Source: Deltaproteobacteria bacterium (GTDB lineage: Bacteria > Desulfobacterota > JADFVX01). From it: a DNA stretch of 64,000 bases. Below, one piece after another: positions 16,861 to 51,403 of the stretch. Position numbers and translations under genes: made by a program. The stretch covers positions 11,031-75,030 of the forward strand of contig JAOUBX010000011.1 of NCBI GenBank assembly GCA_029860075.1, in the 5' to 3' direction. The first letter of the stretch is position 1; the number at the start of each line of letters is the position of its first letter. Under the pieces are notes generated by a model, which made no database searches, was not told where the DNA came from, and saw nothing but the letters and a program-made list of their open reading frames with translations.

Positions 16861-16962
16861 AGTGCCTAAAGTGAACTAAAGTGAACTAAAGTGCCTGAAA
16901 TGTAATTTCTACTTCTTAAATTTAGGCACTTTAAACTTTAGGCATTTTAGGCACTTTTACCG
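16861..16962. repeat. Palindromic array of AGTGCCTAAAGT-type units
   Basis: Left arm AGTGCCTAAAGTGAACTAAAGTGAACTAAAGTGCCTGAAAT. Right arm AAATTTAGGCACTTTAAACTTTAGGCATTTTAGGCACTTTT. This forms a long imperfect hairpin that overlaps the last codons of the cytochrome gene ending at 16947. Confidence 0.8.
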
Positions 16963-18479: not shown

Positions 18480-18685
18480 AGTTACCGTCCTAAATCATTA
18501 TTGAAGAAAAATTGAAACTACTCATTTAATCCTTACTTCCCCTCTTTAGCAAAGGGGGGCGATGGGGAGATTTGAATAGCTATACCTTACTTAAATCCCC
18601 CTTAATTCCCCTTTACCAAAGGGGGAGAGTCCACATATCTTTCTCAGACTAATCCCATTACAATCTGCGCTTAGTTAATCATTAT

Positions 18686-19456: not shown

Positions 19457-19470
19457 TTCTTAAGCTCTCC

Positions 19471-20280: not shown

Positions 20281-20304
20281 CTAAATACTCCTTACTTGAA
20301 CGGC

Positions 20305-23639: not shown

Positions 23640-23644
23640 TCTCT

Positions 23645-24681: not shown

Positions 24682-24882
24682 ATGAATAAAATTTTTGAAT
24701 CAAAGTGGGAGGCTATGACTCTAAACGATTGGATCGGGCTTGCTGTAACGGCAGTTATATTTATCTTCATGATAGTTGCTTACATCTATGTACTTAAACC
24801 AAATAACCGCGAAAAACTGGAAGCCCGCAGAAATATCATAATGAAGGAAGATTCCTCAGACAAGGATGGTGCAGATGACTGA
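24682..24882 (+). CDS. CcoQ/FixQ-like single-TM small subunit
   Basis: 66 aa, one TM helix (IGLAVTAVIFIFMIVAYIYVL). Overlaps the start of the CcoP-like gene, as in ccoQP. Confidence 0.5.
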   Translation: MNKIFESKWEAMTLNDWIGLAVTAVIFIFMIVAYIYVLKPNNREKLEARRNIIMKEDSSDKDGADD

Positions 24883-30794: not shown

Positions 30795-31157
30795 TTACTT
30801 TCCTTTGCACTTACAAAGCACCCGCAAATGCTTGATCAAGGCATCTACCTCTTTATCAGTCAGGGTCTTCGACCAGGGAGGCATCATGGGTGACTTGCTA
30901 AGTGCAGGACCGCCATCAATAATAACATTCTTAAGATCAGCATTGGAGAGTTTATTCATCTCCGCTGCATTAGTAAAGTTCCTCGGTGTAACAGGCATAT
31001 CCTTTGTAACATTGGGCCCGTCACCCTTACCTCCCACACCATGACACTGGGCGCAGTAAAAACTATAAAGCTCCTTTCCACCAGCTGCATCAGCCTGAGG
31101 CGTTGCTGCCAGAAGGAAAGAAAAAACCGCTAATAAACATACAGTAATTCTCATCAT
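30795..31157 (-). CDS. Periplasmic monohaem class-I cytochrome c
   Basis: 120 aa, signal peptide, CAQCH. Confidence 0.8.
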   Translation of the reverse strand: MMRITVCLLAVFSFLLAATPQADAAGGKELYSFYCAQCHGVGGKGDGPNVTKDMPVTPRNFTNAAEMNKLSNADLKNVIIDGGPALSKSPMMPPWSKTLTDKEVDALIKHLRVLCKCKGK

Positions 31158-31182
31158 ATCAATCTCTCCTTATTCAACTATC

Positions 31183-31860
31183 TTATTTGAAGCTGGCAAC
31201 AAAGGCCGATACATTTTTCATGTCTTTATCCTTCAGAAGACCCTTAAATACAGGCATAATCTTGACAGGCTTGAAAACCTTTGGATTTACCATATAGGCA
31301 TAGATCCAGTCAGGATTGAGTCGTTTGCCGGCTCCGACAAGTGACGGACCGGTCATACCACCGGATATTTTTTTCTTGAAGGGATATTGATGACAACCTG
31401 AACAGGGCATTTTTTTCATAAATATAAGCTTACCCTTTGGATTTTTCTTAGGCTTGATAACCCCTGCTTTGACATCCTTAGAAGTGAGTGTCATAAGGTA
31501 ATCTGTCACATTTGCCGCATCCCCCCCTGAGAGTTTAGGATGATTTCCTGGATTCTTCTTTGTCAGGGAATTAAAGGCTAATGGTCTGATGGGCTTGGGA
31601 TCCTGAAGCCATTTGGCCATCCACTCCTTCTGAAATTTGCTTCCCGCATACCAGAGTTCAGGCCCTTTTTTCTTTTTCTGATCGGCTATTGTCTTCTCAC
31701 GGGCAGGGCCTTTCGTATAATGACAACTTCCACCGCATTTCTTTGCCTTAAAAACCTTCTTTCCTGCCGCCGCATCGGCCCAGCTCATCCCGTTTGCCGC
31801 CAGAATGAAAGCAAATACCGACACTACTGATACTGTTCTCTTCCAAGTCACCACATTCAA
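31183..31860 (-). CDS. Periplasmic dihaem cytochrome c
   Basis: 225 aa, signal peptide. Haem motifs CGGSCH (CX3CH variant) and CSGCH. Confidence 0.7.
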   Translation of the reverse strand: MNVVTWKRTVSVVSVFAFILAANGMSWADAAAGKKVFKAKKCGGSCHYTKGPAREKTIADQKKKKGPELWYAGSKFQKEWMAKWLQDPKPIRPLAFNSLTKKNPGNHPKLSGGDAANVTDYLMTLTSKDVKAGVIKPKKNPKGKLIFMKKMPCSGCHQYPFKKKISGGMTGPSLVGAGKRLNPDWIYAYMVNPKVFKPVKIMPVFKGLLKDKDMKNVSAFVASFK

Positions 31861-36405: not shown

Positions 36406-36669
36406 TCATTGATTGCCTGTATGGTTCATGGTTTCCTTACAGATACGCCTTCCTAAAACCTGGCCCGCCAGGGCTACTACAATAAAATAAGGAACACTCC
36501 AATATCCCAGTCCGACAACACGCCTCAATATGATAGTAATAACAATGGGAATATAGAGGCACCTTGCCCAGGGTTTTGAGTATCTCTCGTACCTTCCACC
36601 AATGAGGCCGAAGGAAATATGTATAAAAAATGTATATAAAATGATTGAAAGGAAACTATCATCAATCAT
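36406..36669 (-). CDS. Small two-TM membrane protein, hypothetical
   Basis: 87 aa, tightly packed between the cytochrome gene and the Rrf2 gene. Confidence 0.45.
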   Translation of the reverse strand: MIDDSFLSIILYTFFIHISFGLIGGRYERYSKPWARCLYIPIVITIILRRVVGLGYWSVPYFIVVALAGQVLGRRICKETMNHTGNQ

Positions 36670-36672
36670 CCA

Positions 36673-38298
36673 TTACTCCTCTTCCCTTCTGACTCTTCTT
36701 ACTAGCCAGAACTCACCGAGGCCCGTCAAAACGACACCGAGCAGTGCATAGATATAAACGTTCATCGGCGTGGGGGCCTCCATAAAGAGATAGTGCCAGG
36801 AGGAGAGACTCATAATAAGTCCATGCTCACCATTTGATCCATCCCATGCATTTAAAGCGAGAGGGATAAATTTGCCCTCTTCGAACTGGACGTCATTCTT
36901 GTCCTCTGTTTTAAGGGGGCGCTTCATAACCACTTTGTATGTAGCTCCCTTCCAAATCGCCTTTGACGTCACCTGCTGCTGGTCGGCCGGCTGTGACTTT
37001 ATGGGCTGTTTGTAACCCCTTGCAATAGAATCCTCTACAGCCGGTTCGCCGGCTGCATCCTTGTCGGCCTTCCATAGCCAGAGGTTCACCGGGTTTCCTG
37101 CATCACCTCTGAAGAAGTGAGGCTTCTTCGTCCCTTCAGCCATTTTGACGGGGAACTGTAAGGCGATGGAATCTCTGAAGTTATCAAAGTGTCGCGGGAT
37201 CATATCATTTGCCGCTACATATGAATTATATGCCCCTATTTTACTTATTTCCCTGGCATTAAACTCCTGCGATTCATCGTGTGTAAGATCCTGGAAAGGA
37301 TCATCCCACTCGACAAGGATGGCTATCTCTTTATCGTTATAGAGAGCCCTTACACTGGCAAGTTCGATACTTGGATTCTGCCATCTTGGCGCAGCAATAA
37401 CCTGTCCTGCCAGCCTTACATCCATAGGCTCGGCATTTTGCCACTGCGGTGCCTCGGGATCCTGAGGAAGTTCTCCATCGATCTTCTTTGCCTTCATTAC
37501 CGAGTGCTCTGTAGGGGTATACTGGAGCGACTTGATGTAGTTAGCCAGGTACCACCTTTCCTCATCATTAAAAGATTTTGCAAAGGAAGGCATGGGAGTA
37601 CCCATAATACCCGTTGAAAAGCGCATATAAATATCTTCAACTTCTGACCCTGCTTTAATTTTCCATGGCTGGGTAATATTCCTGATACGAATGGGAAAGC
37701 CCCAGTCATCTTCTTTTATATCCTTCTGACCATCACCCTTACCGCCTTTCCCATGACATTCAAAGCATTTTGCCCTCATAAAGAGTTCCTTGCCTTTTGC
37801 AATGGTATCTGCATTGTAGGGTGCTTTATTCGCGGGAAGACTTATTACTTTTTTACTTGGATCAAGCTCGGGATCTTCAAATTCCATGGCAAAGGTTTTG
37901 ATGTAATAGATAACCTGCCACCGTTCCTCTTCTGTAAGACCGTTCTTAATAATGTCATTATCAAAGGCCTGCATGGGAGTTCCCTGCAGACCACGGCTGA
38001 CAGTCCTGAAAAGATCTTCATCGGTAGGCAACTCACCACTTCCCGTCGTCCTGAACTTGAATACACCAAGGGTAAAATCTCTCGGTCTGGGATCCATATA
38101 ATCGGCAGCCGGGCCATTACCGTCCCCTAAAAGCCCGTGGCAGAAGCTGCACCTTTTGTAGTATATCTCTCTCCCTTTTTCAACGTTCTCAGGCGTCACA
38201 GGCGGCTTCGCCTTAGTCGGTTTTATGCCGGCCAGGGCACTAGTCCCAAACATAGTCATCAATATCGTTATTGCCAGAATGATTGCTCTTCTCTGCAT
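36673..38298 (-). CDS. Dihaem cytochrome c with large C-terminal domain and C-terminal TM anchor (paralogue of 16947..18479)
   Basis: Signal peptide, CSFCH and CFECH. Shares the conserved NPVNLWLWK / AWDGSN blocks with the paralogue. Terminal TM helix. Confidence 0.8.
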   Translation of the reverse strand: MQRRAIILAITILMTMFGTSALAGIKPTKAKPPVTPENVEKGREIYYKRCSFCHGLLGDGNGPAADYMDPRPRDFTLGVFKFRTTGSGELPTDEDLFRTVSRGLQGTPMQAFDNDIIKNGLTEEERWQVIYYIKTFAMEFEDPELDPSKKVISLPANKAPYNADTIAKGKELFMRAKCFECHGKGGKGDGQKDIKEDDWGFPIRIRNITQPWKIKAGSEVEDIYMRFSTGIMGTPMPSFAKSFNDEERWYLANYIKSLQYTPTEHSVMKAKKIDGELPQDPEAPQWQNAEPMDVRLAGQVIAAPRWQNPSIELASVRALYNDKEIAILVEWDDPFQDLTHDESQEFNAREISKIGAYNSYVAANDMIPRHFDNFRDSIALQFPVKMAEGTKKPHFFRGDAGNPVNLWLWKADKDAAGEPAVEDSIARGYKQPIKSQPADQQQVTSKAIWKGATYKVVMKRPLKTEDKNDVQFEEGKFIPLALNAWDGSNGEHGLIMSLSSWHYLFMEAPTPMNVYIYALLGVVLTGLGEFWLVRRVRREEE

Positions 38299-38379
38299 GT
38301 CAACCCTCTCTTAAAATTTTCAATTGTTTATTGACGATTGTTGAATGATTTTTCAACCATCAATCGTCAATCTTCAATC

Positions 38380-39369
38380 CTAGTGTTCCTCGCCCTCACC
38401 GTGAGATTCGGGGATGCGGGCTGTCTTCTCAGCCAGATCATACTCACCCATAATGATCTTCCATCTCTCATCGTCAGTGAGGTTGACTTTCCACTCAGGC
38501 ATTGCTGAGTCCCAGGGAGTCGCCTCTGTGGGCAGACCCGGGCCGCCGTTTGCAACCCTCCAGAAGGTATATCCCTCGACAATAACCTCAATTGTACCGT
38601 TATCAGTAAAGTTGATAGGCCTCAGCTTGAAGCCGTCAGCCATAGGCCCGTCACCGGCAACAGAGTCACCATGACAGGGTCGACAGTTCATTGCATAAAG
38701 AGCGCGTCCCTCAAAGAGATTCTTTTCATGCAATGCACCTCTGGCTGTCTCCCTGTCCACCTTACCTGATTCCACTTCCTTTATAAATTTCTTCCATGGC
38801 CCAGTAGGGATGAAAGACAAAGGATGGCCATCGGGATCAGGCCTCATTTCAAGCCAACTTTCAATATCGGCACTTACCTGGGGAATAAAATCTACCTCAC
38901 CGGCCTTTGCCTGTTCTACAAAGGCATCAATTTCCGCATCTGTCGGATTCTCCATGGGATTTTTCATGGACTCAAACTTTTTAGGAAAGTTCGATGAGGG
39001 GTGCTGTATCCTGAGGGCCACAGGAGGGTTCACTTTTGGAACCGTAAAATCGTAAACCTGCCATCCCACAACAAGAGGAACGACGGCTAAGACCACACTG
39101 CGCTGTAAACTGCCAAATTCACCTTTTAGCAGCCTAAGGATTGGCCTCAGGAACTCATTCATTCCCTCATCGGAAAATGTGACGTAGAGAAAAAGAGCAA
39201 CAAGCGTGAGTACCATATAGAAGAGCACCAACGTTCCCGGCACAGGAAGGGGGAAAGGCATCCCCGTTGCCTGCCTTGAGATGAAGGGGATGAGCCACTT
39301 TATAAGACCGTATATGACTAGCAGGGTCAAAACGATTGTCCAGAAGAAATTTAACTTTGATTTACCCAT
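38380..39369 (-). CDS. Membrane-anchored monohaem cytochrome c (paralogue of 18686..19456)
   Basis: N-terminal TM helices, CRPCH. Confidence 0.8.
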   Translation of the reverse strand: MGKSKLNFFWTIVLTLLVIYGLIKWLIPFISRQATGMPFPLPVPGTLVLFYMVLTLVALFLYVTFSDEGMNEFLRPILRLLKGEFGSLQRSVVLAVVPLVVGWQVYDFTVPKVNPPVALRIQHPSSNFPKKFESMKNPMENPTDAEIDAFVEQAKAGEVDFIPQVSADIESWLEMRPDPDGHPLSFIPTGPWKKFIKEVESGKVDRETARGALHEKNLFEGRALYAMNCRPCHGDSVAGDGPMADGFKLRPINFTDNGTIEVIVEGYTFWRVANGGPGLPTEATPWDSAMPEWKVNLTDDERWKIIMGEYDLAEKTARIPESHGEGEEH

Positions 39370-39396
39370 TTATATCTCCCTTATCGTATCAATTCT

Positions 39397-40371
39397 TTAT
39401 TTTTGAGCTTTTTGCATAATCAGGTAGGAAAGCACATCCTGATAATCCTTTACCGTAAGAGATTCGGAAAGGTCATCAGGCATTACGCTTGTACTCTCAT
39501 CTATCTTTGATTCTTTAATATCACTCTTGCTGATAGTGACAACGTCTCCATCTGCCTTGGTGATGTCGATTTCCGTCGCTTCATCACGGGTTTTAATCCC
39601 TTTGAACTGTCGCCCTTCTTTATTAACAACGACGTGGGTCTCAAAACCTTCAACAATAACAGTACCGGGCTGAACGATAGATTCGGAAATATACTTAAGA
39701 CCCTTCTTGCCTATTGCGGAAAGTTGGGGGCCTATTTCTCCTCCCTCGTCACCTATCATATGACACTCACTGCAGTTGTCCTCAAAAACAATCTTCCCGT
39801 TACCGGGGTCACCGCCTCCGGCTGCTGAAGCTGCTGCGATTTTGTCGTAATATTTTTTTGTTACCTCACTTGGATTATTGAGAGCATCCATGTCGAGATC
39901 TCCACCCTGACTCTGAAGATAAACAACAACGGCCTTGATCTCGTCGAGGCTTAGCGATATTGGCGGAGCAAAGACGATTGCCATCTCATTTTTATAGCCA
40001 TCTACCACGAAAGCTCCCGGATCGGCCAGACTCTCTACAAGATAATCGGTAGGTGAATAATTTTTTCCCGTCTGCTCACTGCGCTCTTTGGCCCTCTCAA
40101 CCGCTCTCGCACCGATGGGCAATGCAAACTTTTCTCCGAACTGACCCAAATTGGGACACCTGACGGCGCTTCCCCTGTCCCCAAGGCTGTGGCAGGTAAA
40201 GCAACGACCTTTACCCCAGAAGATGGCTTCACCCCCTTCGGGAGTGACCTCTACTGCACCGCCTCCACCCTTTTTTTCACCACCCGTAAGGTCGGTTATG
40301 GCCTTTCCTACATAAAGAAAGGTGGCCAGAACCAACAGCAGAAATATAAAAACATTAAGAACAGCTTTCAT
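39397..40371 (-). CDS. Dihaem class-I cytochrome c (paralogue of 19471..20280)
   Basis: Signal anchor, CFTCH and CSECH. Confidence 0.8.
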   Translation of the reverse strand: MKAVLNVFIFLLLVLATFLYVGKAITDLTGGEKKGGGGAVEVTPEGGEAIFWGKGRCFTCHSLGDRGSAVRCPNLGQFGEKFALPIGARAVERAKERSEQTGKNYSPTDYLVESLADPGAFVVDGYKNEMAIVFAPPISLSLDEIKAVVVYLQSQGGDLDMDALNNPSEVTKKYYDKIAAASAAGGGDPGNGKIVFEDNCSECHMIGDEGGEIGPQLSAIGKKGLKYISESIVQPGTVIVEGFETHVVVNKEGRQFKGIKTRDEATEIDITKADGDVVTISKSDIKESKIDESTSVMPDDLSESLTVKDYQDVLSYLIMQKAQK

Positions 40372-40503
40372 TGATAACCTCCAAAGAATAGTTCTGAAAA
40401 TGACTTGTAATCTCCCCTAACCCCTCTTTTTCTAAGAGGGGAACATTGCTCTTTCCCCCTTAGAAAAAGGGGGATTAAGGGGATTTTCAAATAACTTTAT
40501 TAA

Positions 40504-42615
40504 TCAATCCTTCTTTTTCTGCGAAGCAATACCGCCAAGCCAGAACATAAAGGCCACTCCAACGAGGAAGACCAGAACGGAAAGTCCTACCATCTGCGTC
40601 ATAGTGTAGTTACTGGGCGTATAGGCCCACTCCGATGTATCCCTCATTACGCCAAAGATATGCCAGTCAGTCCTGAGTCCTGAACGGATGAAACCCATAA
40701 GCCCCATATTCATGGTAATAACTATGGTCAAAAGAAGGAGCGCGTACTGACTTCTTACTGTCATCTTTCCCCACTTCAGCGGTCCGATCTCCTTGGCATT
40801 TCTGAAAAGGAAGGCATCAATGGCACTGACAAGGATCAAAGCGCTGATTAGCTGTAGAAACTGGCTAACAGCAATATTCCTGAGGAAGGGCGATGCTTTT
40901 TCCATCACAACAAAGCCATAAACACCCAGGAAACCTGTGACGCTTAAAGCCGTAAAACCGAGATAGAGATATTGACCTAAAACCCCTTTATCCTTTAAGG
41001 CAAGGAGAACAGCAACAACAGCTACTGCACAGTTAGCTAGAAGAAGGTAGCCCGTTGTTTTAAAATACTCGGTCCGGTCCGCCGGTAGATCGAGGCTACC
41101 TGGATCGAGGGTGATCATGGAGACGGCATACTGACCAACAATCAATATGGCCAACAGGCCTGCCATAGGGATCACAATTTTAGGCGCTTTTCCTTGCCGG
41201 CTGATTGGCAGAGTATCACCTTTATTCCCTCTTCTGTATAGGAGAAAGCTGAAAAAAGTAGCCAGGATGATCAGGTTAACAACCGCATTCTTTGCCGGCA
41301 TCAGTCCTAAATATTTCAAGGTGGGGTGATACTGGCTACCACCCATCTGGGATACCTCTTGACCGGTAAGGGGCAGATTGTGAGGCGTCAGCCACACGGC
41401 AAAGGAGATGATAATAGCACCGAGAATGAACTTTATATATTTATAATACCTCTCCGCCCCGGGTATCCTCGTCATGCCGCTCCATAGATAGTAGTTACTT
41501 ATAAGGAAAAGCGACCCTACGAGCATAGCCTGGATGATAAAAGTCCATGAGAAGTCACCGCCCATCATGTTGTTCCCCATAACGGCACTCGTTGAATAGA
41601 CCTCACGTCCGAGATAGTATCCAGCGAAGGGAAGAGGAATAAGGGCTGCTATAGCGACGAAGTTCGCAATATAGCCCATCCAGTCATAATGAGCTTTCTC
41701 TTCATCAGTTTTTGATCCGAGAAATTTGACTGCCGCATAGGAACCTGCAACCAATCCTCCAAAAGCAAGGTTCCCAAGCATTCTGTGAATGGCCACCGGT
41801 GTTGCAAGGGTGTTTTCGAATACCTGCCAGAGCGTACCCGTCAGTACTCCCTTCTGGTCAACACCTCCGGGGCTCATCATAAAGCCGACCCAGGAATTAG
41901 CCATCTGCATGATAGCCGTACCAACGACGTTTAGCAAAATACCTATCAGTATGTGGGTACTCTTCCTGTCCTTCACCATCATTAAACCGATACCAACAGG
42001 TAAAATGTAGAGAAAAGCCATAAAGGTTCTCGTATCAGTCCTCATTTGGGGACCGAATGCTCCAAAGAAGAAAGCTATGCCGATCAAAATGACAACGGCA
42101 CCGAGACCTTTCATGAACCACTGCACAGGTTTGCTGTACTCTTCTCCGCCACTGAGCCAGCCCCAGCCGTAATAGTATAGATAGAGGCAGAAGGTTTCGC
42201 CGAAGAAAAGGAGGGCATAAATGAACATGACGTCCTTGAAGTTGCCCGCCATATACCCCATGAATGTGGGATAAAGTGTAAAAAGGGCAAAGGCGAGAAG
42301 CCCGCCGAATGCAGCCGTTGTCGCATAGGCAACACTCAAAAGAGATGTAAACTCGTATGACAGCTTGTCGAACTTCTTATCTCCACCCTTCCAGCCTACG
42401 ATCTCGATTATCACCGCAAATAGCGGAACACCAAGAACAAAAGCCCCGAAAAATAGGTGCATCTGGGCTATAAACCAGACAACCTTCCTGGAGTCGAGGC
42501 CCAACACCTGCCGGTATACATTCTCTTCAAGGGCATATGCCGTTGATGATAGTACAAGCGCCATCAACAGGGCCGCAACGCCCCCTTTAACAATCTTATT
42601 AGATAACAAAGTCAT
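40504..42615 (-). CDS. Cytochrome bd superfamily (CydA-like) membrane protein, CydB-less, copy 2
   Basis: 703 aa. It has FIAQMHLFFGAFVLGVPLFAVIIEIVG (CydA helix-1 His/Glu motif), HYDWMGY, and C-terminal GFIRSGLRTDWHIFGVMRD, which aligns with the CydA GRQPW motif region. Collinear with copy 1. Confidence 0.8.
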   Translation of the reverse strand: MTLLSNKIVKGGVAALLMALVLSSTAYALEENVYRQVLGLDSRKVVWFIAQMHLFFGAFVLGVPLFAVIIEIVGWKGGDKKFDKLSYEFTSLLSVAYATTAAFGGLLAFALFTLYPTFMGYMAGNFKDVMFIYALLFFGETFCLYLYYYGWGWLSGGEEYSKPVQWFMKGLGAVVILIGIAFFFGAFGPQMRTDTRTFMAFLYILPVGIGLMMVKDRKSTHILIGILLNVVGTAIMQMANSWVGFMMSPGGVDQKGVLTGTLWQVFENTLATPVAIHRMLGNLAFGGLVAGSYAAVKFLGSKTDEEKAHYDWMGYIANFVAIAALIPLPFAGYYLGREVYSTSAVMGNNMMGGDFSWTFIIQAMLVGSLFLISNYYLWSGMTRIPGAERYYKYIKFILGAIIISFAVWLTPHNLPLTGQEVSQMGGSQYHPTLKYLGLMPAKNAVVNLIILATFFSFLLYRRGNKGDTLPISRQGKAPKIVIPMAGLLAILIVGQYAVSMITLDPGSLDLPADRTEYFKTTGYLLLANCAVAVVAVLLALKDKGVLGQYLYLGFTALSVTGFLGVYGFVVMEKASPFLRNIAVSQFLQLISALILVSAIDAFLFRNAKEIGPLKWGKMTVRSQYALLLLTIVITMNMGLMGFIRSGLRTDWHIFGVMRDTSEWAYTPSNYTMTQMVGLSVLVFLVGVAFMFWLGGIASQKKKD

Positions 42616-42785
42616 ATCTGTAACACCTCCATAAAAATCTCACATAGAAAGAAATTTGCAGGGGCAAACCCCTGTGTTTACCCTTTTTAAATAAAGGGCA
42701 AAGGCGGGGATCTAAATTGCCTTTTTTTATTTATTTTAAAACAAGGGCAGGCACGGGGGGCTGCCCCTACGGACAAATTAAATAG

Positions 42786-43331
42786 CTATTTCTCTCTTTT
42801 AAGCGCCCTTACAAACCTCACCACACCGGCAATCTCTTCCACCTCCATCTCTTCATCGTCGATATTCGTTTTACTGCAGATATTGATGGGTTCCGTCAAA
42901 TCCTTCAGTTTATCGTTAGAAGGAGTCTTGCTATTCAAAGGAGGAATGGATTGACTATGGCATTCCAGGCAAATTTCTTCAAAGAGCTTGTCACCTGTAA
43001 CGGCCCTGGCATAGAGGATCATGCTCTTCATTTCATCCTCGTTAATAACGTCCTTCCAGGGAGGCATTAGCTCTCCCTTTCCCTCCTTGATCGTCTTTAA
43101 AAGTTCCTCCTCCTTTTTATCGAGCCGTTCACCCTTTGCAAAGTTAGGGGCTTCAGGAAGAACTGAATTACCGTCAAAGCCATGACAGGCTGCACAGTTT
43201 TCTTCATAGATGGCTCTAGCCTTTTTTATTATTTCAAGTTTCTCTACCCACTTTGCATCTTCAGCGGCAAAGGCCGAACCTGTAAAAGCAGCTGCTAATA
43301 ACAATGCCAGAATGATAATTACTCTATTCAT
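42786..43331 (-). CDS. Periplasmic dihaem cytochrome c
   Basis: 181 aa, signal peptide, CAACH and CLECH. Confidence 0.8.
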   Translation of the reverse strand: MNRVIIILALLLAAAFTGSAFAAEDAKWVEKLEIIKKARAIYEENCAACHGFDGNSVLPEAPNFAKGERLDKKEEELLKTIKEGKGELMPPWKDVINEDEMKSMILYARAVTGDKLFEEICLECHSQSIPPLNSKTPSNDKLKDLTEPINICSKTNIDDEEMEVEEIAGVVRFVRALKREK

Positions 43332-43343
43332 CTTTTCTCCTCA

Positions 43344-45665
43344 TTAGTGTAATGTACCGGAAAGAGCCGAATAAAATTCCGCCAGTGCATCTATGCACAT
43401 CCAGTGATACTCCTCATAGTCGGCATCGTTAAGACGGTCCAGGAGTATTTGTGTACAATGTGGATCTTCCAGCCGTCTCAATGTCCTTGCAGCCTCACGT
43501 CGCAACTCCCCGCCATGATCAAATATGACATTCAGTACTTTTCCGCTAAGCTCCCCTTCTTCTTCATCTTCTGTTACAACATTGAGGGCCGCCCTCTTTA
43601 CCACCATCTCTTCATCATCAAGAGCCCTGGATAACAAATCCACTGCTGTCGAACCCTCCATAGAAGCGGCCACATTCAAGGCTCTCTCACGTACAAAGTA
43701 GTCAGGGTCACCTATTAGTATATGGAGCTTTTCTTCGATAACACTCTGAGCACCGAAACCCTTAAGGGCATCTATTGAAGCAAGTCTTACATCTCTGCTA
43801 TCAGATTCAAGCCCTTCCAGTACTAAAGGAAGTGACTTTTCATCACCTATCCTGCCAAGAGAAGTAATAACCTCCTTACAGATATCAGGATTATCAATAT
43901 CCACAGCCTCAGTTAAAGTCTCAAGCGCCTTTTCGCACTTCCTCTCTCCAAGGAGCCTTGCAGCAATAAGCTTCACTCTTATCTCTCTCTGTTCCATCTC
44001 AAAAGACCTGGCTTCCTCTTCAAGTTTGCGCTTTATCTCTCTATTCTCCTGAGCTTCAGGGGAAACCTGCGAAGCCATGATGGAAGCAAGAGTGGAAACA
44101 TCCTCCTTACCGATAGCCACCTCTCCATCGCCCAACAATTCTTCTACAGAGGGTTTATCTTCTTCACTCTCTTCCTCAATGGAGTTCATATCTTCCGATA
44201 TATGAGACACTTCACATTGGTCAACTGTTTCAGTCACAAAACCTTCTAGTAAGATATCTGCAAGTGTTTCCACTGATCCCTCAGGGTCTATCTCGGCAAG
44301 TGCCGTCATGGAAGCGATGGAAACGTTATCCTTCTTATCAAAAACAGTCCTCTTCAGCACCTCTACAGGATCAATGACTTCTTCCACACTTTCCACTGCC
44401 TCACCCTCTTCGTCTGAGGCATCTAAAAGCTCTTCTTCCCCAACAGTCTCATCCACCTCCCGGGACTCCATTCCCTTGCCCTTCAACATCCTGCCTAGAG
44501 CTATTGCAGCCTGAACTCTCACATTATTATCCATCTTTTCGTCATCGAGCATGGAGGCAATCTTTTCCTCAGGGCCCTCTTTAGCTATTTTTCCCAATGC
44601 TAAAACAGCGGCATAATTAAGGTCTCTATCATCGACGGAAAGATACATGCTGATTAGATCTACATATTCAGGACTGCCGATTTCACCCAGTATTTTCAGA
44701 ACTTTAGTGATGAGATAAGGGCTTGGGGAGTCACTCATCAACTTGATTAGTTTTTCGGCAACAGCCTTACCACGCATTTTTCCAAGAATTTCTGCTGCTT
44801 CCTCACAGACATTACTGTTGTTATCAGACAAAAGCATGGTAAGAGGAACAATGATCTGGGGACTCTTTGTGGCGCCCAGTGCCCTCGCCGCATATATGCG
44901 CACGTCCGGATCTTCATCCAGTAGCGCGTTACTCAATGATTCAAGAAGCCGGTTATCTATTTCACCGTTTTCGTTAGTTATAAAGTCAAGTTCTATAAAG
45001 GCCTTGGCCGCCCTTCTTCTGGCTAACCTTCCACCCTTTTCAAGTTGCTCAAGGAGGAAGTTCGTAGCCCTGGTACTGCTCAATTTGGCAAGCACCCTGA
45101 ATCCTTTTTCCTGGAGGTCTTCATATTCCTCATTGAGAAGAAGTTCTATTACACCATCGGCGGCATTTTCATCACCCAATTCACCGAGAGCATCGAGGGC
45201 CTGGCTCTGCACTTCCCATGCAGGAGCAAATTCCATATCATCCCCTTCACCGTCATAGATATCGAGGTAGCCATCCTCTTTGATACATTCCATCAAGACG
45301 TTAAGGGCCTTTTTCGACCTCATTTTACCCAGCGCGATAACGGCCTGGATACGCACCTCTCCATCGGGGTCATTCTTTAAGGTATCGATCAAAGGATCGA
45401 CGGCATCTTCCATATTCAAATTACCGAGCGCTTGCGCCGCATCCATACTCACATCAGGATCACTATCGTGCAAGGCATCTATAAGCTTATTTATGGATTC
45501 TTTATCAATAGCCTTCATTTTTTCAAGAGCCCTTACAGCACAACACCTTGAAAGAGAATTATCTCTGCTCAATACTTCCTGAAGATTTTCTATCACTGTT
45601 TCACGGTTTGCTTTTTTTATACTGTTCATAGGTTCCGTCATTTCAGTTATCATAATTAAGACCAT
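43344..45665 (-). CDS. HEAT/PBS-lyase-type repeat protein
   Basis: 773 aa of repeated ~30-aa units (AVRALGKIG-like) with acidic linkers. No catalytic motifs. Sits 67 bp downstream of the aioA-like gene. Confidence 0.6.
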   Translation of the reverse strand: MVLIMITEMTEPMNSIKKANRETVIENLQEVLSRDNSLSRCCAVRALEKMKAIDKESINKLIDALHDSDPDVSMDAAQALGNLNMEDAVDPLIDTLKNDPDGEVRIQAVIALGKMRSKKALNVLMECIKEDGYLDIYDGEGDDMEFAPAWEVQSQALDALGELGDENAADGVIELLLNEEYEDLQEKGFRVLAKLSSTRATNFLLEQLEKGGRLARRRAAKAFIELDFITNENGEIDNRLLESLSNALLDEDPDVRIYAARALGATKSPQIIVPLTMLLSDNNSNVCEEAAEILGKMRGKAVAEKLIKLMSDSPSPYLITKVLKILGEIGSPEYVDLISMYLSVDDRDLNYAAVLALGKIAKEGPEEKIASMLDDEKMDNNVRVQAAIALGRMLKGKGMESREVDETVGEEELLDASDEEGEAVESVEEVIDPVEVLKRTVFDKKDNVSIASMTALAEIDPEGSVETLADILLEGFVTETVDQCEVSHISEDMNSIEEESEEDKPSVEELLGDGEVAIGKEDVSTLASIMASQVSPEAQENREIKRKLEEEARSFEMEQREIRVKLIAARLLGERKCEKALETLTEAVDIDNPDICKEVITSLGRIGDEKSLPLVLEGLESDSRDVRLASIDALKGFGAQSVIEEKLHILIGDPDYFVRERALNVAASMEGSTAVDLLSRALDDEEMVVKRAALNVVTEDEEEGELSGKVLNVIFDHGGELRREAARTLRRLEDPHCTQILLDRLNDADYEEYHWMCIDALAEFYSALSGTLH

Positions 45666-45732
45666 TTCATCACATTTGTTAGAAAAATCAGGGGCACCCC
45701 CACATAAGGATGCCCCTGAAAGAAAACAGACT

Positions 45733-48450
45733 CTAGGCGATATCCCTCCGGATGAAGCTCATCTGGGAGAAGCTCTTCTTGAAAGGCGATTCACCGATCT
45801 TCTTAACCTTACCCATGGCAATCTTATAGTTGTAGTTCATTGTCATAGGATCAGGTACTCTTGGTGCAATCGAATTGAATGCCTGCTTTTTATCAAGGAA
45901 GTTGGTAAAGGTTACCCCCTTCTTAATGGCAGGTGTTACGATTGCCACGGCAGAGAACTCACCTGATTCAAACTTGAGGTGTCCACGCTTTTTGAGACCG
46001 TTGAAGTACATGTCGTCACCTTTCACACCAAGGTTGAAGTCCTTCTGGATTGCAACCCTGTCGTTGGTTACGGTCACCATATCACCGGACTCGATACCCC
46101 TCTTCTTAGCATCAGCAGGGTGAATCTCGATGAAGTTCATGGGCCATCTCTGTTGGATATAGGCACGTCTTTCCGTATCATCGAATCCGGATTGCCATAT
46201 CTCGTTGATACGACCGGCAGTTACCCAGAGTTCACCGTCCCTCGGCTTGAGATAGTCATGGTACTGGTTCCAATAGAAATTCCATGGCGTTTTCATCAGG
46301 TTCAGCTTACCTGTCTGTGATTTAAAGGCCATAATGTTCTTCTTGATAACCGTAGGACCCTCGGGACCGGTTTCCGGTATGGCGAACTTCTTATTTTTAT
46401 TACGGTCATACCAGTGCTGCCTCGGTGTTTCCATGATCTTGCCGTCAACCCAGAGAAGCGGCGCCTGATAACCCTGCGTACCTCTCTTGGCCAGGAAGTC
46501 ATGAGCTTTCATACCGGCCTTCCTTGCGGCAACCTTAATTGCGTTGAAGTCAGACCTGTGACCACGGCTGAACCTGCAAGCCTCCTCGAATACATCGTTG
46601 GAGTCTTTCCAGTCGTAACCGTCAAAGCCCATCTTCTTGGCAAACATAGAGACGATCTTCCAGTCTGGTTTGGCGTCACCCGGTGCATCGTAGAACTTAG
46701 AATAAAGACGGATACGCCTTTCACCGTTCTCCCTGGTAAAGCTGTCTTCACCCCATGTTGCGGCAGGAAGAATAATGTCGGCATACTGGCTGCCAACGGG
46801 ATCGATGAGGTAGATGTCCTGATTGACGACAACCATACCACCACTGTCTACCCTCTTCTTGAGTGTTTCGATAATTTCTTTCTTATCGAAGCTCTTTACC
46901 TGGTTCGGATTGAGCTTGACCTGTCTCTTAAAGCTATCCTGCATAGCTGCAGAACCGGCCATGGCCTGCATCCAGGTCGTTCCAACTACATAGGCAAATC
47001 GCAGGTGGCCCGCTTCAACCCAGCGGTCAAGATCCAGTCTATGACGCCTTCTGCCGGGGAACTTGTAAGGTGACCTGATACCGGGGTAAGGGCCACCGCC
47101 CCTGCCGCCACGCTGATGTCCACCGAGACGGGTTACAGCACTTCCGGGCTTTCCACCTGCACCGCAGATAATTCCAAGTACTCCAACTGAGGCAGTGTTA
47201 CCCCAGTTGTTTGACCAGTAATTACCTTTCTCGATACCGATTGTAAGCTTACGGCGCTTGCCTCTTTTCGGCTTAGCCATTAATTCAGCTGCTTTGTAGA
47301 TCTTCTTTACATCAATTCCGCAAATCTTGGCAGCAACCTTCGGATCGGCTGACTTTTCACCGAGGTTCCACTTTTTATAAGCTTCGATGCCGTTAACGAC
47401 GCCGATCTTACCCCATGTGGTTCTCCACTGCCATGGTGTATTACGCGTTCCCTGGCCGAATCCGGAGTCCGTCTCCCACTTATTGTTAACAAAGCGCTTG
47501 ATGAATTCCTTGTCTTCCCATCCTTTTTCAAGGATGACCCTTGCAATGGCGTTGTGCAGGGCCTGATCGGTTCCAGGCGTAATATCGATCCAGAGGCCGC
47601 CATTCTTTTCTATATGGGCAACACCGGCAGTTCTTCTGGGGTTGACCATGATAACCTTGGTCTTGTTTTTCTGGATTCCTTTGAGAATCCACTCATTCCA
47701 GACGATTGTTTTCGCTTCATAGGGATCGGTCCCTGAAAGGAAAATTGTGTCTGCAAGAGAGAAGTCCTCGTAGGCTGCGGGAAAGATGTCATAACCGATA
47801 TCTACCCAACCCGGAACGGAGTTAACGATTGCCGGGTGGTCATGATGTGCCACAGCCGGCGTCCCGATATTCCTGAAAGCAAGCTTGGTAAGTGCAAAAG
47901 TGTTCTCATAGTATTGGTAACTAAAGTACTTGAGACCCCATGCATTCTCACCGTGATTTTTAAGAACATGCCTCGAAACATCGGCCATAATGTCCAGGGC
48001 AAAGTCCCAGGTAACAGGCATGAGCGTATCATGAACCCTTACCATAGGATATTTGAGCCTGTCCTGGGTAGGGCTCTTAGGATTGTATACTTTCTGGGCA
48101 ATACATCCGCCACGTATACTGGCGTCTCCGCCGACGTTAACGACCTTTGAGTCACCATCAGGTACAACGGCAATATTGTAAAGCTTACCTTTATAGGCAG
48201 CCTGTGTTACCTGGGTTGGACTTACCCAGTTACCGGATCTTCCCGGAATGCTCGTAGAACCGGGCAGAACAAAATCCCTGTTTAGAGCATTCTGGCTCTT
48301 CTTGGGTCCACCGGGCTTTGCATTTGCAGGCCAGCGGTAGACCTTGTAGCCGCATGCAACGATACAGTAATCGCAACATGTAGTGAGCACCTCTGCGTTT
48401 TTAGGCGGAAGAGGCACTCTGTCTTCTGGCTGATAATGTGGTGTTGACAT
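45733..48450 (-). CDS. aioA: Arsenite-oxidase-type molybdopterin oxidoreductase large subunit (AioA-like)
   Basis: 905 aa. N-terminal RVPLPPKNAEVLTTCCDYCIVACGYKVYRWP closely matches the AioA 3Fe-4S motif region (CxxCxxxC...). Also NGERRIRL and EIWQS blocks shared with AioA. Preceded by its Rieske partner. Confidence 0.8.
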   Translation of the reverse strand: MSTPHYQPEDRVPLPPKNAEVLTTCCDYCIVACGYKVYRWPANAKPGGPKKSQNALNRDFVLPGSTSIPGRSGNWVSPTQVTQAAYKGKLYNIAVVPDGDSKVVNVGGDASIRGGCIAQKVYNPKSPTQDRLKYPMVRVHDTLMPVTWDFALDIMADVSRHVLKNHGENAWGLKYFSYQYYENTFALTKLAFRNIGTPAVAHHDHPAIVNSVPGWVDIGYDIFPAAYEDFSLADTIFLSGTDPYEAKTIVWNEWILKGIQKNKTKVIMVNPRRTAGVAHIEKNGGLWIDITPGTDQALHNAIARVILEKGWEDKEFIKRFVNNKWETDSGFGQGTRNTPWQWRTTWGKIGVVNGIEAYKKWNLGEKSADPKVAAKICGIDVKKIYKAAELMAKPKRGKRRKLTIGIEKGNYWSNNWGNTASVGVLGIICGAGGKPGSAVTRLGGHQRGGRGGGPYPGIRSPYKFPGRRRHRLDLDRWVEAGHLRFAYVVGTTWMQAMAGSAAMQDSFKRQVKLNPNQVKSFDKKEIIETLKKRVDSGGMVVVNQDIYLIDPVGSQYADIILPAATWGEDSFTRENGERRIRLYSKFYDAPGDAKPDWKIVSMFAKKMGFDGYDWKDSNDVFEEACRFSRGHRSDFNAIKVAARKAGMKAHDFLAKRGTQGYQAPLLWVDGKIMETPRQHWYDRNKNKKFAIPETGPEGPTVIKKNIMAFKSQTGKLNLMKTPWNFYWNQYHDYLKPRDGELWVTAGRINEIWQSGFDDTERRAYIQQRWPMNFIEIHPADAKKRGIESGDMVTVTNDRVAIQKDFNLGVKGDDMYFNGLKKRGHLKFESGEFSAVAIVTPAIKKGVTFTNFLDKKQAFNSIAPRVPDPMTMNYNYKIAMGKVKKIGESPFKKSFSQMSFIRRDIA

Positions 48451-48462
48451 AGTATATACCTC

Positions 48463-49002
48463 CTATCCTTTCAAGTTATCGTACCGGCCATAAATAAGAC
48501 CGATAAGTCCGACGGCATAAATGTCGTCTCCCTCGACTTCGAGGAGAACCTGTGGAAGGCTCTGCGTTGCATGACCGGTGACGATCATACCGTGCCTCGT
48601 CAGGTCAAAGGTAGACTGATGGAAAGGACAGGGTCCGAGAGCTTTGTCTGCGGACTGATAGAACCTTCCCATGGGGCCACCCATATGTGTACAGAGCGTA
48701 TTAAAAGCCACAACATCTTTCTTTCTTCCTATCCCGCCTCCGGCAGGCGTCCCGAGCTTAACAAGTATGCTCTGGGAATTTTTGCCGTCATCGGGATATT
48801 TGAAAGTCAAAGGCTTGTTGGCCTTCAGCTTACTGAGCCTTCCGATCTTCTTTTTCGGATAGGTAGTCACTTCAGCCGCTATGGCCTTTCCTTCCAGACC
48901 GGGAATATTGTTGAGAAGTACCGTAGTTGCTACGGCAGCACCGCTCCCGATAAGAAAGGCCCTTCGGCTTATGCAACGGTCATCATTTTTACTATTTTCC
49001 AT
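48463..49002 (-). CDS. aioB: Rieske [2Fe-2S] small subunit with Tat signal (AioB-like)
   Basis: 179 aa, twin-arginine motif RRAFLIGSG. Rieske boxes CTHMGG and CPFHQS. Confidence 0.8.
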   Translation of the reverse strand: MENSKNDDRCISRRAFLIGSGAAVATTVLLNNIPGLEGKAIAAEVTTYPKKKIGRLSKLKANKPLTFKYPDDGKNSQSILVKLGTPAGGGIGRKKDVVAFNTLCTHMGGPMGRFYQSADKALGPCPFHQSTFDLTRHGMIVTGHATQSLPQVLLEVEGDDIYAVGLIGLIYGRYDNLKG

Positions 49003-49015
49003 AGCTTAAACCTCC

Positions 49016-50260
49016 TTAATATTTGATGCCCTGGGCATCGAGGTAGAACTCGATTCCAGTGATTTTGGCCTTCTTCTGGGTCAGGCGCTTTACATCAGGG
49101 AAGGGCTTCATTTTGGGAACCTTGACGGAACCGATCTTGATTTCCTTACCACTGATCTCTTCGAGGAAAGCAACGAGAGCTTCCTTCTCACCATCAGTCA
49201 AGCCGAGAGGTTTGAGGATCTTCGTCTTGGTACCGTACTTTTTGGTAAAGTCGTTCTCACCACCACCATCGTTGTAGAAATCAATGACTTCTTCGAGGGT
49301 AAAGAACTGACCGGCATGCATATAAGGCGCCGTATACTTGAGATAACGAAGCGGTGCTGTCCTGAATTTACCGAGATCCTTTTTTTGCTTGGTTTGGAAA
49401 TAGAGGCCCAGGTCGTCTTTGTAGTTCCTGTATTTGTCCTCATAGACACCCTTGGCATAAAGCTCAAACCTGAAAGTGATCTGATTAAGACCTATCGTCT
49501 CCCACTCTTCAGGCCTCGGTACACCGATATTATAAAACTTCTCGTCAGTCAGCATAGGACCATTGTGACACTCAATACAGTTGGCCTTACCTTCGAAAAG
49601 CTTCATCCCTTTAACGGCCTTCTTGGAAAGGGCGCTCTTCTTACCTTTCAGATACTTATCAAGTGGAGACTCCCACTTGCCGACCTGCGAAAGCGCACCA
49701 CGCTCAAAAGCAGCAATTGCCATATAAGCCAGTGGACGAACATTAGGCTGCTCTGCACCGTAGACCTTTCTGAAAAGCTCTACATACTCAGGTGTTTGAC
49801 GAAGACGCTCATCCATCACGTCCAGTTCACCATTACCGGCAACACCACCCTGTGCGGCAGATTTAGCCTGCTTTTCGAGACTCGTTGTCGATCCGGCCCA
49901 GAAAACCTTGTTCAGGTACCCTGTATTGACAACGGTCTGGCAGTTTCTCCAGTGGACCGTACCGGGATAACCACGGCAGATCGGTTCGTTAAATCCCCAA
50001 CCCTGTTCGGGATGGTGACAGTCTACGCAAGCCAGACTTGCGTCACCTGAAATTTTAGGATCGAAATAGAGCATTTTTCCCAGCTCGATCTTTTCAGGCG
50101 TCATAGAGTTATCCATGGGATCCGGCACAGGGCCCAGAGGGGCGAGTGGCGGATCAAAATCAGGATCTCCCTTTGCAAAGGTGGACGAAGCAGCCATTAA
50201 AAAAGCAAGGCATGTCACCACCATCAGAGGGAGGGCCACTTTATAAATTCTTTTATTCAT
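49016..50260 (-). CDS. Dihaem cytochrome c peroxidase / MauG family protein
   Basis: 414 aa, signal peptide, CVDCH and CIECH in CCP-family context (GNGELDVMDER, PYMHAGQF). Confidence 0.8.
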   Translation of the reverse strand: MNKRIYKVALPLMVVTCLAFLMAASSTFAKGDPDFDPPLAPLGPVPDPMDNSMTPEKIELGKMLYFDPKISGDASLACVDCHHPEQGWGFNEPICRGYPGTVHWRNCQTVVNTGYLNKVFWAGSTTSLEKQAKSAAQGGVAGNGELDVMDERLRQTPEYVELFRKVYGAEQPNVRPLAYMAIAAFERGALSQVGKWESPLDKYLKGKKSALSKKAVKGMKLFEGKANCIECHNGPMLTDEKFYNIGVPRPEEWETIGLNQITFRFELYAKGVYEDKYRNYKDDLGLYFQTKQKKDLGKFRTAPLRYLKYTAPYMHAGQFFTLEEVIDFYNDGGGENDFTKKYGTKTKILKPLGLTDGEKEALVAFLEEISGKEIKIGSVKVPKMKPFPDVKRLTQKKAKITGIEFYLDAQGIKY

Positions 50261-50275
50261 GATTAAACCTCCCGT

Positions 50276-51403
50276 CTAATTCTTTTTATTGAGCCAGTCT
50301 TCGATCACAGGATATTCCTGCGGGATCTTGGGTGGATCAATTTTTCCAGGTTGTTTAGGACTGCTTAAACTCTCCAGGAAGGCAACGAGTTGCTTTTTCT
50401 CGCCGGAGCTGAGTCCTAACTTCTTAAGTTCCCTTGCTAGAGGATCATCATGCCCGCCACCGTTATTGTAGAATTCAACAACATCCTTCAATGACTTAAT
50501 GGTGCCGTTATGCATGTAAGGAGCGGTGTACTTGAGTTCCCTCAGCGTAGGGGTAATGAACTTTCCTACGTCAGCATATTTTTTGCTGGTAAAGAAATAA
50601 CCCACGTCTCTTCTCCACTGTCCCCCTTTGGGAACACCGTATGTGGTCAGAACCGCACGGTAGGTGGCATGCCTGACGGCATTTTTGAACACTTCGAGGT
50701 TCTCGGCAACACCCGTATTATGCGGTTTGCCATCTGAAAAGTAGGAGCCGTTGTGGCACTTGATGCAGCCTGCCTTACCTTTGAAGAGCTTCATACCGGC
50801 CTTGGCATCTTTTGACATATTACCTTTGTCGAAAGGTGCGTCACCGGTGGAAACAAGCGTTTCCACATAGGCGATCAATGCTTTCCTTGCCTTACCGGAA
50901 GAGCACTCACCGTTGAAGTTTTCCTTACACATTTTCACGTAAGTAGGATCCTGTTTCATCCGCTCATGAAGTATTCTCATGTCCAGGTTCAGGATAGTCG
51001 TTTCAGTGATCTGGTCCCTCATCACATCGTTCAGGCTGGAACCCATGCGGCCGTCCCATCCCCATCCCACATCCGAGAAGCCACTCTTATAAACGACATT
51101 TAAAAGCGTTGCCGAATTCCTGAAATAATCGGAACCGGGATATGCCTTTGACAGTGGCTGTCCATCACCGAAACCCTTTCTCGGATCGTGGCACGTAGCA
51201 CAGCTGATAGCGCCATCACCGGAAATCCTCGCGTCATAGAAAAGCCGCTTGCCCATTTCAACCATGGACGCCTTAGGGGCTTTCCTTTTCGGCAGGGGTC
51301 CGATGTCTTCACCGGCCATAGCTACCGTGGGAGCAGCAATGAAAAGAGTCACTGCACCCAACAGAGCGAGACCGGACATGGCTAAGATCTTTTTCTTCCC
51401 CAT
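50276..51403 (-). CDS. Dihaem cytochrome c peroxidase / MauG family protein (tandem paralogue)
   Basis: 375 aa, CATCH and CIKCH, PYMHNG motif. Confidence 0.8.
   Translation of the reverse strand: MGKKKILAMSGLALLGAVTLFIAAPTVAMAGEDIGPLPKRKAPKASMVEMGKRLFYDARISGDGAISCATCHDPRKGFGDGQPLSKAYPGSDYFRNSATLLNVVYKSGFSDVGWGWDGRMGSSLNDVMRDQITETTILNLDMRILHERMKQDPTYVKMCKENFNGECSSGKARKALIAYVETLVSTGDAPFDKGNMSKDAKAGMKLFKGKAGCIKCHNGSYFSDGKPHNTGVAENLEVFKNAVRHATYRAVLTTYGVPKGGQWRRDVGYFFTSKKYADVGKFITPTLRELKYTAPYMHNGTIKSLKDVVEFYNNGGGHDDPLARELKKLGLSSGEKKQLVAFLESLSSPKQPGKIDPPKIPQEYPVIEDWLNKKN

Follow-up and report, generated by a model that had tools for sequence, protein, structure and literature searches.

The OR-N enzymes form a family of the cytochrome bd superfamily that lacks a quinol site (Murali, Gennis and Hemp 2021, bioRxiv 10.1101/2021.01.16.426971). 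Complexes of this kind are abundant in nitrite oxidisers and anammox bacteria but have never been characterised. In Nitrospina, Kuenenia and Nitrospira, the neighbours of nxr, which encodes nitrite oxidoreductase (NXR), specify an alternative NxrC, one monohaem and one dihaem cytochrome c and a 14-helix bd-like oxidase, which has been called 'conspicuous' and its function 'enigmatic' (PMC3578206). The literature carries two ideas about the role of such modules, namely a cytochrome c-dependent oxygen reductase and a quinone-coupled module that serves a periplasmic molybdenum (Mo) enzyme. We analysed a gene cluster of this type, operon 2, in a 64,000-nucleotide (nt) stretch of a deltaproteobacterial genome (assembly GCA_029860075.1, contig JAOUBX010000011.1, positions 11,031 to 75,030), hereafter the window, to which all coordinates refer. 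Operon 2 encodes one of two ancient paralogous four-subunit OR-N2 'cytochrome bd-like' complexes.

A sequence-only reading of this stretch had noticed that the four genes of operon 2 recur in the same order 20 kb away, and had described the span 36673-42615 as an operon that ends in a regulator gene. All genes of interest lie on the minus strand:

42615..40504, minus strand: CydA2, a CydA-like, OR-N2-type bd-like subunit I of 703 amino acids (aa) with an N-terminal signal-like helix
40371..39397, minus strand: c324, a dihaem cytochrome c of 324 aa with an N-terminal anchor, CFTCH at 57 and CSECH at 200
39369..38380, minus strand: c329, a monohaem cytochrome c of 329 aa with three N-terminal transmembrane (TM) helices and CRPCH at 229
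38298..36673, minus strand: c541, an 'alternative NxrC' of 541 aa, in which a dihaem cytochrome c domain is followed by an EB_dh haem-b domain and by a TM anchor at the C-terminus
36669..36406, minus strand: tm87, a small membrane protein of 87 aa with 2-3 TM helices
36395..35904, minus strand: Rrf2-family regulator of 163 aa, with a probable start at M6 (36380)
22161..16947, minus strand: module 1, consisting of CydA1, c269, c256 and c510 (618, 269, 256 and 510 aa) in the same order as operon 2

The span holds the four core genes, and tm87 and the Rrf2 gene fall just outside it. The collinear recurrence itself is borne out, since BLASTP detects all pairs: CydA2 and CydA1 are 46 % identical (E 5e-138), c324 and c269 29 % (E 1e-20), c329 and c256 31 % (E 2e-44), and c541 and c510 39 % (E 2e-117). 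The alignments cover the membrane helices and the EB_dh domain (93 bits in c541 and 98 bits in the other copy, Pfam) and so extend beyond generic CxxCH motifs; confinement to such motifs, named beforehand as a refutation, does not hold.

The large subunit had been proposed to be bd-like, and domain models, signature residues and fold matches agree with this. The Pfam model Cyt_bd_oxida_I (PF01654) scores 34 bits in CydA2 and 66 bits in CydA1 (cutoff 26), and the cytochrome bd chain 5DOQ_A is matched at E 1e-4. The top 10 PDB fold matches of an AlphaFold2 model of CydA2 are all cytochrome bd subunit I, at 12-16 % identity; the model is of low confidence (predicted local distance difference test, pLDDT, 65) and was used for helix counting and fold class only. 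To our knowledge, no structure of an OR-N family member has been solved. We compared both CydA-like proteins with the signature residues tabulated for the Nitrospira OR-N2 reference (H99, Y183, E190, Y197, Y199, H213, H269, M430/N434, S563 and W569; Table S6 of Murali et al.). CydA1 carries all of them (H98, Y178, E185, Y192, Y194, H208, H264, M425/N429, S559 and W565) and matches the 14-helix reference nearly position by position, at a near-constant offset of 4-5 (1 for H98). CydA2 likewise has the complete set (H53, Y133, E140, Y147, Y149, H221, H277, M439/N443, S645 and W651). When 86 CydA2 and 50 CydA1 orthologues from other genomes were aligned, the signature was conserved at no less than 97 %, except at the first His, which in CydA2 (H53) is invariant only in the 39-sequence alignment A1. 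Both copies keep a Glu that is absent from OR-N1, indicating that both are OR-N2. OR-N1, which has Gly in place of this Glu, was ruled out, as pet genes are absent too; the OR-C family, our first candidate, was ruled out by the lack of CxxCH motifs in the CydA-like proteins. The operon content, several cytochromes c together with an EbdC-like subunit, is also what the OR-N2 definition calls for.

CydA2 has canonical cytochrome bd (CydAB of E. coli, 6RKO, and Geobacillus, 5DOQ) as its best fold match, shares with it the N-terminal four-helix haem-binding core, and has equivalents of His19, His186, Met393, Glu107 and His126. Both CydA-like subunits retain the His/Met site of b558 type as well as the high-spin haem site's His. 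CydA2 differs from the canonical enzymes, besides its low identity, in having no CydB and no Q-loop (there is no long periplasmic loop after the H277 helix), in the replacement of the b595 ligand Glu445 by Ser and of Glu99 by Tyr, and in its electron donor, which is probably cytochrome c. CydA2 has about 17-18 helices and CydA1 about 12-14 hydrophobic segments, and the alignment places two inserted helix pairs in CydA2, at about 152-217 and 497-581.

All four gene types are shared with the NXR-associated clusters, namely Nitrospira bd-like_3 with its downstream duplicate bd-like_4 and the clusters of Nitrospina gracilis and Kuenenia stuttgartiensis, a homology that rests on the published descriptions and the Table S6 residues rather than on direct alignment. 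Those clusters, like operon 2, adjoin a periplasmic molybdoenzyme. Since both the cluster and its duplication have been described beside nitrite oxidoreductase, the module and its duplication are of an already known kind, and the 18-helix CydA2 and the Idr-like island described below are its variant features. The neighbour is a type II dimethyl sulfoxide (DMSO)-reductase-family NXR in the described clusters, whereas here it is a Rieske-containing Aio/Idr-type enzyme. From OR-N2 as defined by Murali et al., which it resembles in the CydA-like subunit without a Q-loop, the locus differs in the two helix pairs added to CydA2, in the pairing of two modules, one of them (module 1) with three tiny TM open reading frames (ORFs), and in the occurrence of the Idr-like partner in Proteobacteria-dominated metagenome-assembled genomes (MAGs), not in Nitrospirota.

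Each complex contains three membrane-anchored periplasmic cytochromes with five haem-c motifs, and one NxrC/EbdC-type haem-b domain. The dihaem nature of c324, for which 74 orthologues were found (median identity 65 %), follows from its Pfam Cytochrom_C match and the count of CxxCH motifs, and in the c329 and c256 families H123 and M290 are among the residues invariant in both. Residues 36-259 of c541 match the Kuenenia dihaem cytochrome 6H5L_B (E 2e-55), and its EB_dh part matches NxrC (7B04_C) and EbdC (2IVF_C). In c541 the position of EbdC Met108 is an invariant Arg397 and that of Lys201 an invariant Met496, with a nearly invariant His394 nearby; in c510 (16947-18479) the same positions are Met364 (17/20) and His462. 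As these ligand positions are fixed differently in c541 and c510, haem-b ligation appears to differ between the two modules, and the redox potential probably does too.

Database homologues of CydA2 number more than 3500; the 120 best all show 74-85 % identity and come from varied taxa. Using a scan of one genome per species, we found relatives in 408 stretches and kept the best 80 loci, which come from Alpha-, Beta- and Gammaproteobacteria, 'Deltaproteobacteria' and Nitrospirae, are all MAGs, and in many cases derive from the ETNP (Eastern Tropical North Pacific), the Arabian Sea, Saanich Inlet or groundwater. The loci were compared by tblastn with 33 window proteins as queries; since they are the ones most similar to CydA2, the frequencies hold for this clade rather than for OR-N2 modules at large. 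Among the 62 species-level loci with enough downstream sequence, 60 retain the order CydA2-c324-c329-c541, which supports the earlier proposal that the four genes are a functional unit and answers the call for the same synteny in other genomes. A local duplication, by contrast, is not what the comparison indicates: orthologues of each copy are 61-100 % identical across classes and paralogues 41-50 %, so the duplication is old. The second module follows in tandem after two small linking cytochromes c in 44/48 loci:

30795..31860, minus strand: c225 and c120, two small linking cytochromes c identified by Pfam

These two genes stand between c541 and CydA1 in the same 44/48 loci. The c225 protein (31183-31860, minus strand) has an unusual CGGSCH (CX3CH) motif beside a standard CSGCH. 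Because the modules are adjacent in 44/48 genomes, their 20 kb separation here is secondary, and two insertions split an ancient module pair in this genome. One insertion, between c541 and c225, holds tm87, the Rrf2 gene, and genes for a 158-aa protein, CcdA/DsbD, thioredoxin and an extracytoplasmic function (ECF) sigma factor; the second is located between c120 and CydA1. A FixP/CcoP-like cytochrome (cbb3 subunit III, FixP_N; 24866-25741, plus strand), with no adjacent CcoN/CcoO seen, is also part of the inter-module insertion.

Upstream of CydA2 lies a second gene group, which the sequence-only reading had not connected with the operon:

42786..51403, minus strand: idr-type cluster of two dihaem peroxidases, a Rieske protein with a twin-arginine translocation (Tat) signal, a 905-aa Aio/Idr-like Mo subunit, a protein with HEAT repeats and the dihaem cytochrome c181, identified by Pfam

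Genes for two dihaem peroxidases, a Rieske protein and an Aio/Idr-like Mo subunit stand upstream of the modules in 45/48 loci. In most genomes both modules follow in tandem directly downstream of the idr-type cluster, forming a co-directional island of roughly 20 kb, and this island has become distributed across uncultured Alpha-, Beta- and Gammaproteobacteria, 'Deltaproteobacteria' and Nitrospirae of oxygen-minimum zones and groundwater. The Mo subunit and its partner match Pfam Molybdopterin, Rieske_3 and Rieske and show an SRRAFL Tat motif and a CxxCxxxC motif, and the Mo subunit has the 3Fe-4S domain known from AioA. The peroxidase genes lie directly upstream, in P2, P1, B, A order, and it is by exactly this set and arrangement of genes (idrP2, P1, B, A) that published work tells iodate reductase from arsenite oxidase (PMC8692401, PMC10989891). 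The same content and order characterise the idrABP1P2 islands of Pseudomonas sp. SCT and of Denitromonas sp. IR-12. At the protein level, idr-type proteins of Azonexus hydrophilus, Vibrio sp. THAF190c and Thiothrix, none of them a verified IdrA, share 50-52 % identity with the Mo subunit, and well-known AioA proteins from plasmid records share 28 %. The Azonexus plasmid locus reads histidine kinase, sigma-54 regulator, peroxidase, peroxidase, Rieske, Mo subunit, cytochrome c, a layout that recurs here down to the kinase and regulator. We regard the upstream cluster as idr-type, with iodate reduction as its putative activity judged from gene content and order. What sets the present island apart from the described idr islands and from the Azonexus and Vibrio examples is the presence of bd-like modules (none lies within 12 kb of the latter two), of a HEAT-repeat protein and of a CarboxypepD_reg-like protein. 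A full-text literature search returned no paper linking idr with bd-like modules or iodate reductase with cytochrome bd, and the text of the Reyes-Umana paper does not mention bd-like neighbours of idr.

An assignment of the molybdoenzyme as AioAB was tried and rejected, given the 28 % identity to the solved AioA, the marginal score with the NCBIfam arsenite-oxidase model TIGR02693 and the presence of peroxidase genes. The AioA pocket residues were also set aside as a means of telling Aio from Idr, as three of four are kept (H195, R419 and H423) and E203 is lost. The same data bear on the unlikely alternative that the Mo enzyme oxidises a periplasmic donor, arsenite or another oxyanion precursor, and that the twin modules are its terminal oxidases. 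The Mo subunit does pass TIGR02693, narrowly (420 bits, cutoff 359), and retains H195, R419 and H423; the cluster would then encode a full chain from donor to oxidase, in analogy to NXR and its bd-like neighbours in aerobic nitrite oxidisers. However, the protein is only 28 % identical to true AioA, against 50-52 % to the idr-type sequences, E203 is not conserved, and two peroxidase genes in the P2-P1-B-A arrangement define idr and are absent from aio (PMC8692401, PMC10989891).

Several further genes accompany the idr-type cluster. A secreted beta-sandwich protein resembling CarboxypepD_reg is encoded in 66/80 loci, either before the peroxidases or directly before CydA2; in this genome, as in one other locus (L007), it is preceded by a Porin_5 outer-membrane protein, and the two lie at 51422-52201 and 52265-53359 (minus strand). 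Upstream of the kinase and regulator, a protein with universal-stress and PCP_red domains is encoded at 57673-59472 (minus strand), and a similar one stands right after c541 in genomes without an Idr partner (L005, 16311-17498).

What the paired modules do can be weighed against this background. Our favoured reading, to which we assign a rough probability of 0.42 (the confidences in this text are judgements, not measurements), is that the module is a cytochrome c-fed membrane reductase, with a quinone-coupled unit close behind. In this view, the periplasmic cytochrome c pool would feed electrons into the complex by way of its dihaem/haem-b subunit and its other two cytochromes. The low-spin haem of the CydA-like subunit would hand them on to the high-spin haem with its His ligand, the site at which a small oxidant would be reduced; trace O2 is the most likely candidate, and a reactive side product of iodate reduction is possible. 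With this role, three cytochrome c-dependent sinks (the Idr enzyme, the two peroxidases and the bd-like modules) would be bundled in the island, for life in low-oxygen, iodate-containing waters. This reading draws on the retained haem-d-site His and the equivalents of the proton-channel Glu and His. It is further consistent with the copper chaperones Sco1 and PCuAC beside module 1, Sco1 lying inside the cluster in two loci (L008 and L010), and with the absence of a Q-loop and of any subunit resembling a known quinol-binding protein (PMC3578206).

A number of points weigh against a cytochrome c-fed reductase. Anammox bacteria, which are strict anaerobes, carry the same module next to NXR, and in Nitrospira the proposed terminal oxidase is the OR-N1-type bd-like_2 and not this module (PMC6606698). 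None of the OR-N enzymes has been purified so far, and the literature treats their oxidase activity as a hypothesis (PMC10839748); for the operon 2 complex, too, oxygen reductase activity is a prediction from sequence. The b595 ligand and Glu99 are substituted as described above, the CydA2 model is of low confidence, and the 80-locus sample is biased towards this clade. Finally, the molybdoenzyme is read as an iodate reductase from gene content and order while it keeps three of the four AioA pocket residues, and cultured iodate reducers work without bd-like modules.

Some of these points argue instead for quinone-coupled electron-transfer units, a kind of alternative complex III linking the quinone pool to the periplasmic molybdoenzyme, which we consider a serious and only somewhat less likely candidate. 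Here, electrons would run from quinol over the cytochromes c to IdrAB and the peroxidases, and beside NXR in the reverse direction. All described contexts have one single feature in common, a periplasmic molybdoenzyme, be it NXR (PMC6606698, PMC3578206) or an Idr-like enzyme (45/48 loci). The occurrence of the module in anaerobic anammox bacteria fits this alternative, as does the homology of c541 to the gamma subunit by which type II Mo enzymes are docked, and a new quinone site could be formed by the four additional CydA2 helices. Respiratory islands also commonly bring their own quinol dehydrogenase. On the other hand, the quinol-binding residues are missing along with the Q-loop, the haems of the bd fold all lie near the periplasmic face, and Aio and Idr enzymes work not with a gamma subunit but with a Rieske subunit and soluble carriers. 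In four loci (L005, L006, L013 and L018) the module adjoins multicopper oxidases and has no Mo enzyme beside it, and two full modules seem too much for electron supply alone.

The comparison with NXR also permits a different view of the molybdoenzyme, in which the bd-like module would be a general membrane partner of periplasmic molybdoenzymes. The Idr-like enzyme and the twin modules would then make up an entire chain from donor to oxygen, which could work in the oxidative direction and turn iodide or a lower iodine species into iodate, as NXR does with nitrite. The IO3-/I- couple, at +0.72 V, lies just under O2/H2O. The NXR analogy is exact at the level of the module. Such a chain would be a candidate for the biological process, long sought, by which iodate forms in the sea, although we regard it as a long shot.

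The sequence-only reading had looked to the Rrf2 regulator for a hint at the physiological signal and had suggested nitric oxide (NO) handling. The regulator has the proposed Cx6Cx5C cluster-binding motif (C97, C104 and C110) and scores 116 bits with Pfam Rrf2. Its D13, C97, C104 and C110 align with D8, C93, C99 and C105 of the [4Fe-4S] NO sensor NsrR of S. coelicolor (5N07), with which it shares the Rrf2 fold. It differs from NsrR in its cysteine spacing, which is Cx5Cx5C there, and in the absence of NsrR-type targets nearby. Against the models of the named sensors it stays below every cutoff (NsrR 68 vs 182 bits, IscR 75 vs 208, RirA 82 vs 193), and these identities were rejected, only the Rrf2 superfamily model being passed. 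The database copy of the protein is 158 aa long, and a homologue search in a word index returned three proteins; tm87 has no Pfam match. As gaps of 3 nt (c541-tm87) and 10 nt (tm87-Rrf2) leave no room for an intergenic promoter, the regulator gene, placed at the 3' end of the operon as reported, is probably co-transcribed with c541.

The addition of tm87 and the Rrf2 gene to the second copy holds for this genome and not as a general feature, since neither is found downstream of c541 in any of the 80 loci (62 with enough downstream sequence). Both follow the module in this lineage and on two short related metagenome contigs (L092 and L093), which keep the arrangement c541 end-tm87-Rrf2-158-aa protein, with L092 continuing into DsbD. 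There, tm87 is 52-65 % and the regulator 54-64 % identical, and these same-position copies indicate that tm87 and Rrf2 are real genes conserved in the lineage. A sister contig whose CydA2 is 83 % identical has no Rrf2 gene after c541. In two of the 80 loci (L018 and L075), an unrelated Rrf2 gene stands upstream of CydA2.

No operator of the regulator was found: CCCTTT-N6-AAAGGG occurs exactly once in the window and, allowing up to two mismatches, 10 times against a chance mean of 5.5, no excess, and the window, L018 and L075 share no GC-containing palindromic half-site, in a test of low power. The palindromes that had been proposed as binding sites are part of long stable hairpins and recur neither elsewhere in the window nor in the other Rrf2-linked loci.

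A module for NO handling or NO-tolerant respiration under an NsrR-like regulator is therefore very unlikely in our judgement. In its favour stand the alignment with NsrR at all four ligands, the probable co-transcription, the Rrf2 genes by the module in L018 and L075, and the NO tolerance of canonical bd oxidases (PMC10839748). Against it, the regulator is missing in 78/80 loci and the L018 and L075 copies are only 34-37 % identical, the NsrR score is far under its cutoff, no shared operator was found, and the scanned window genes include no NO reductase, hmp or nitrite reductase. Rrf2 is a local, lineage-specific add-on; its ligand pattern suggests an Fe-S sensor that, within a cytochrome c-fed reductase operon, would probably provide feedback control by O2, NO or redox state. 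The informative context for the module is the Idr-like enzyme and not Rrf2, which is of local interest only. Overall, the observation of a recurring four-gene module was confirmed and its interpretation partly supported.

These results together link the paired module tightly to a second, unrelated periplasmic molybdoenzyme, iodate-reductase-like, in dozens of uncultured marine and groundwater species. The Idr link offers an independent context for testing whether the OR-N2 complexes are terminal oxidases or quinone-coupled modules, and it suggests that iodate reducers of oxygen-minimum zones carry a larger conserved respiratory island than the four-gene idr of cultures.

Two spacers around CydA2 are predicted to be highly structured:

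42616..42785, minus strand: 170-nt leader from c181 to CydA2, with a long hairpin (-56.9 kcal/mol, z -4.7)
40372..40503, minus strand: 132-nt spacer from CydA2 to c324, with a 47-nt-arm inverted repeat (-52.1 kcal/mol, z -5.3)

Both hairpins are unique in the window, and the leader contains terminator-like sites; promoter and terminator scans gave no more sites than shuffled sequence. Rfam detects only two tRNAs in the window, so the structured spacers match no known RNA family. In the three annotated loci checked (L001, L003 and L005), the genes for CydA2 and c324 either overlap or are separated by 5 nt, and where an idr cluster is present, the upstream gap of CydA2 measures 45-58 nt. Searching plasmids gave no match to the CydA-like protein. 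A tRNA-Arg(CCT) gene (13457-13533, plus strand) lies about 600 nt past the last island gene; no att-like repeat of its 3' end was found elsewhere in the window, which thus shows no sign of recent integration.

Further small and accessory genes surround module 1:

22183-22299, minus strand: tiny single-TM ORF of 38 aa upstream of CydA1
22320-22409, minus strand: tiny single-TM ORF of 29 aa upstream of CydA1
22869-22964, plus strand: tiny single-TM ORF of 31 aa upstream of CydA1
23010-24094, plus strand: Sco1 and PCu(A)C copper chaperones, divergent from the CydA1 operon
14163-16834, minus strand: homologue of HemY-type protoporphyrinogen oxidase and an AhbD/NirJ-like radical S-adenosylmethionine (SAM) protein with a PCP_red tail, directly after c510

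Homologues of the tiny ORFs occur near CydA1 in 53-54 of the 54 loci that carry it, the 31-aa ORF switching strand between clades, and they look like CydX-type small subunits. Module 2 is without them; CydA2 instead has its four extra helices. The Sco1 gene stands between c120 and CydA1 in L008 and L010, both from Gammaproteobacteria. Sco1 and PCuAC fit an old suggestion of a copper site in bd-like proteins, and H309, H412, H430 and H652 are invariant extra histidines. The HemY/radical SAM pair is found upstream of CydA2 in six loci (L011, L012, L015, L016, L022 and L085), which hints at a dedicated haem modification for the bd-like complexes.

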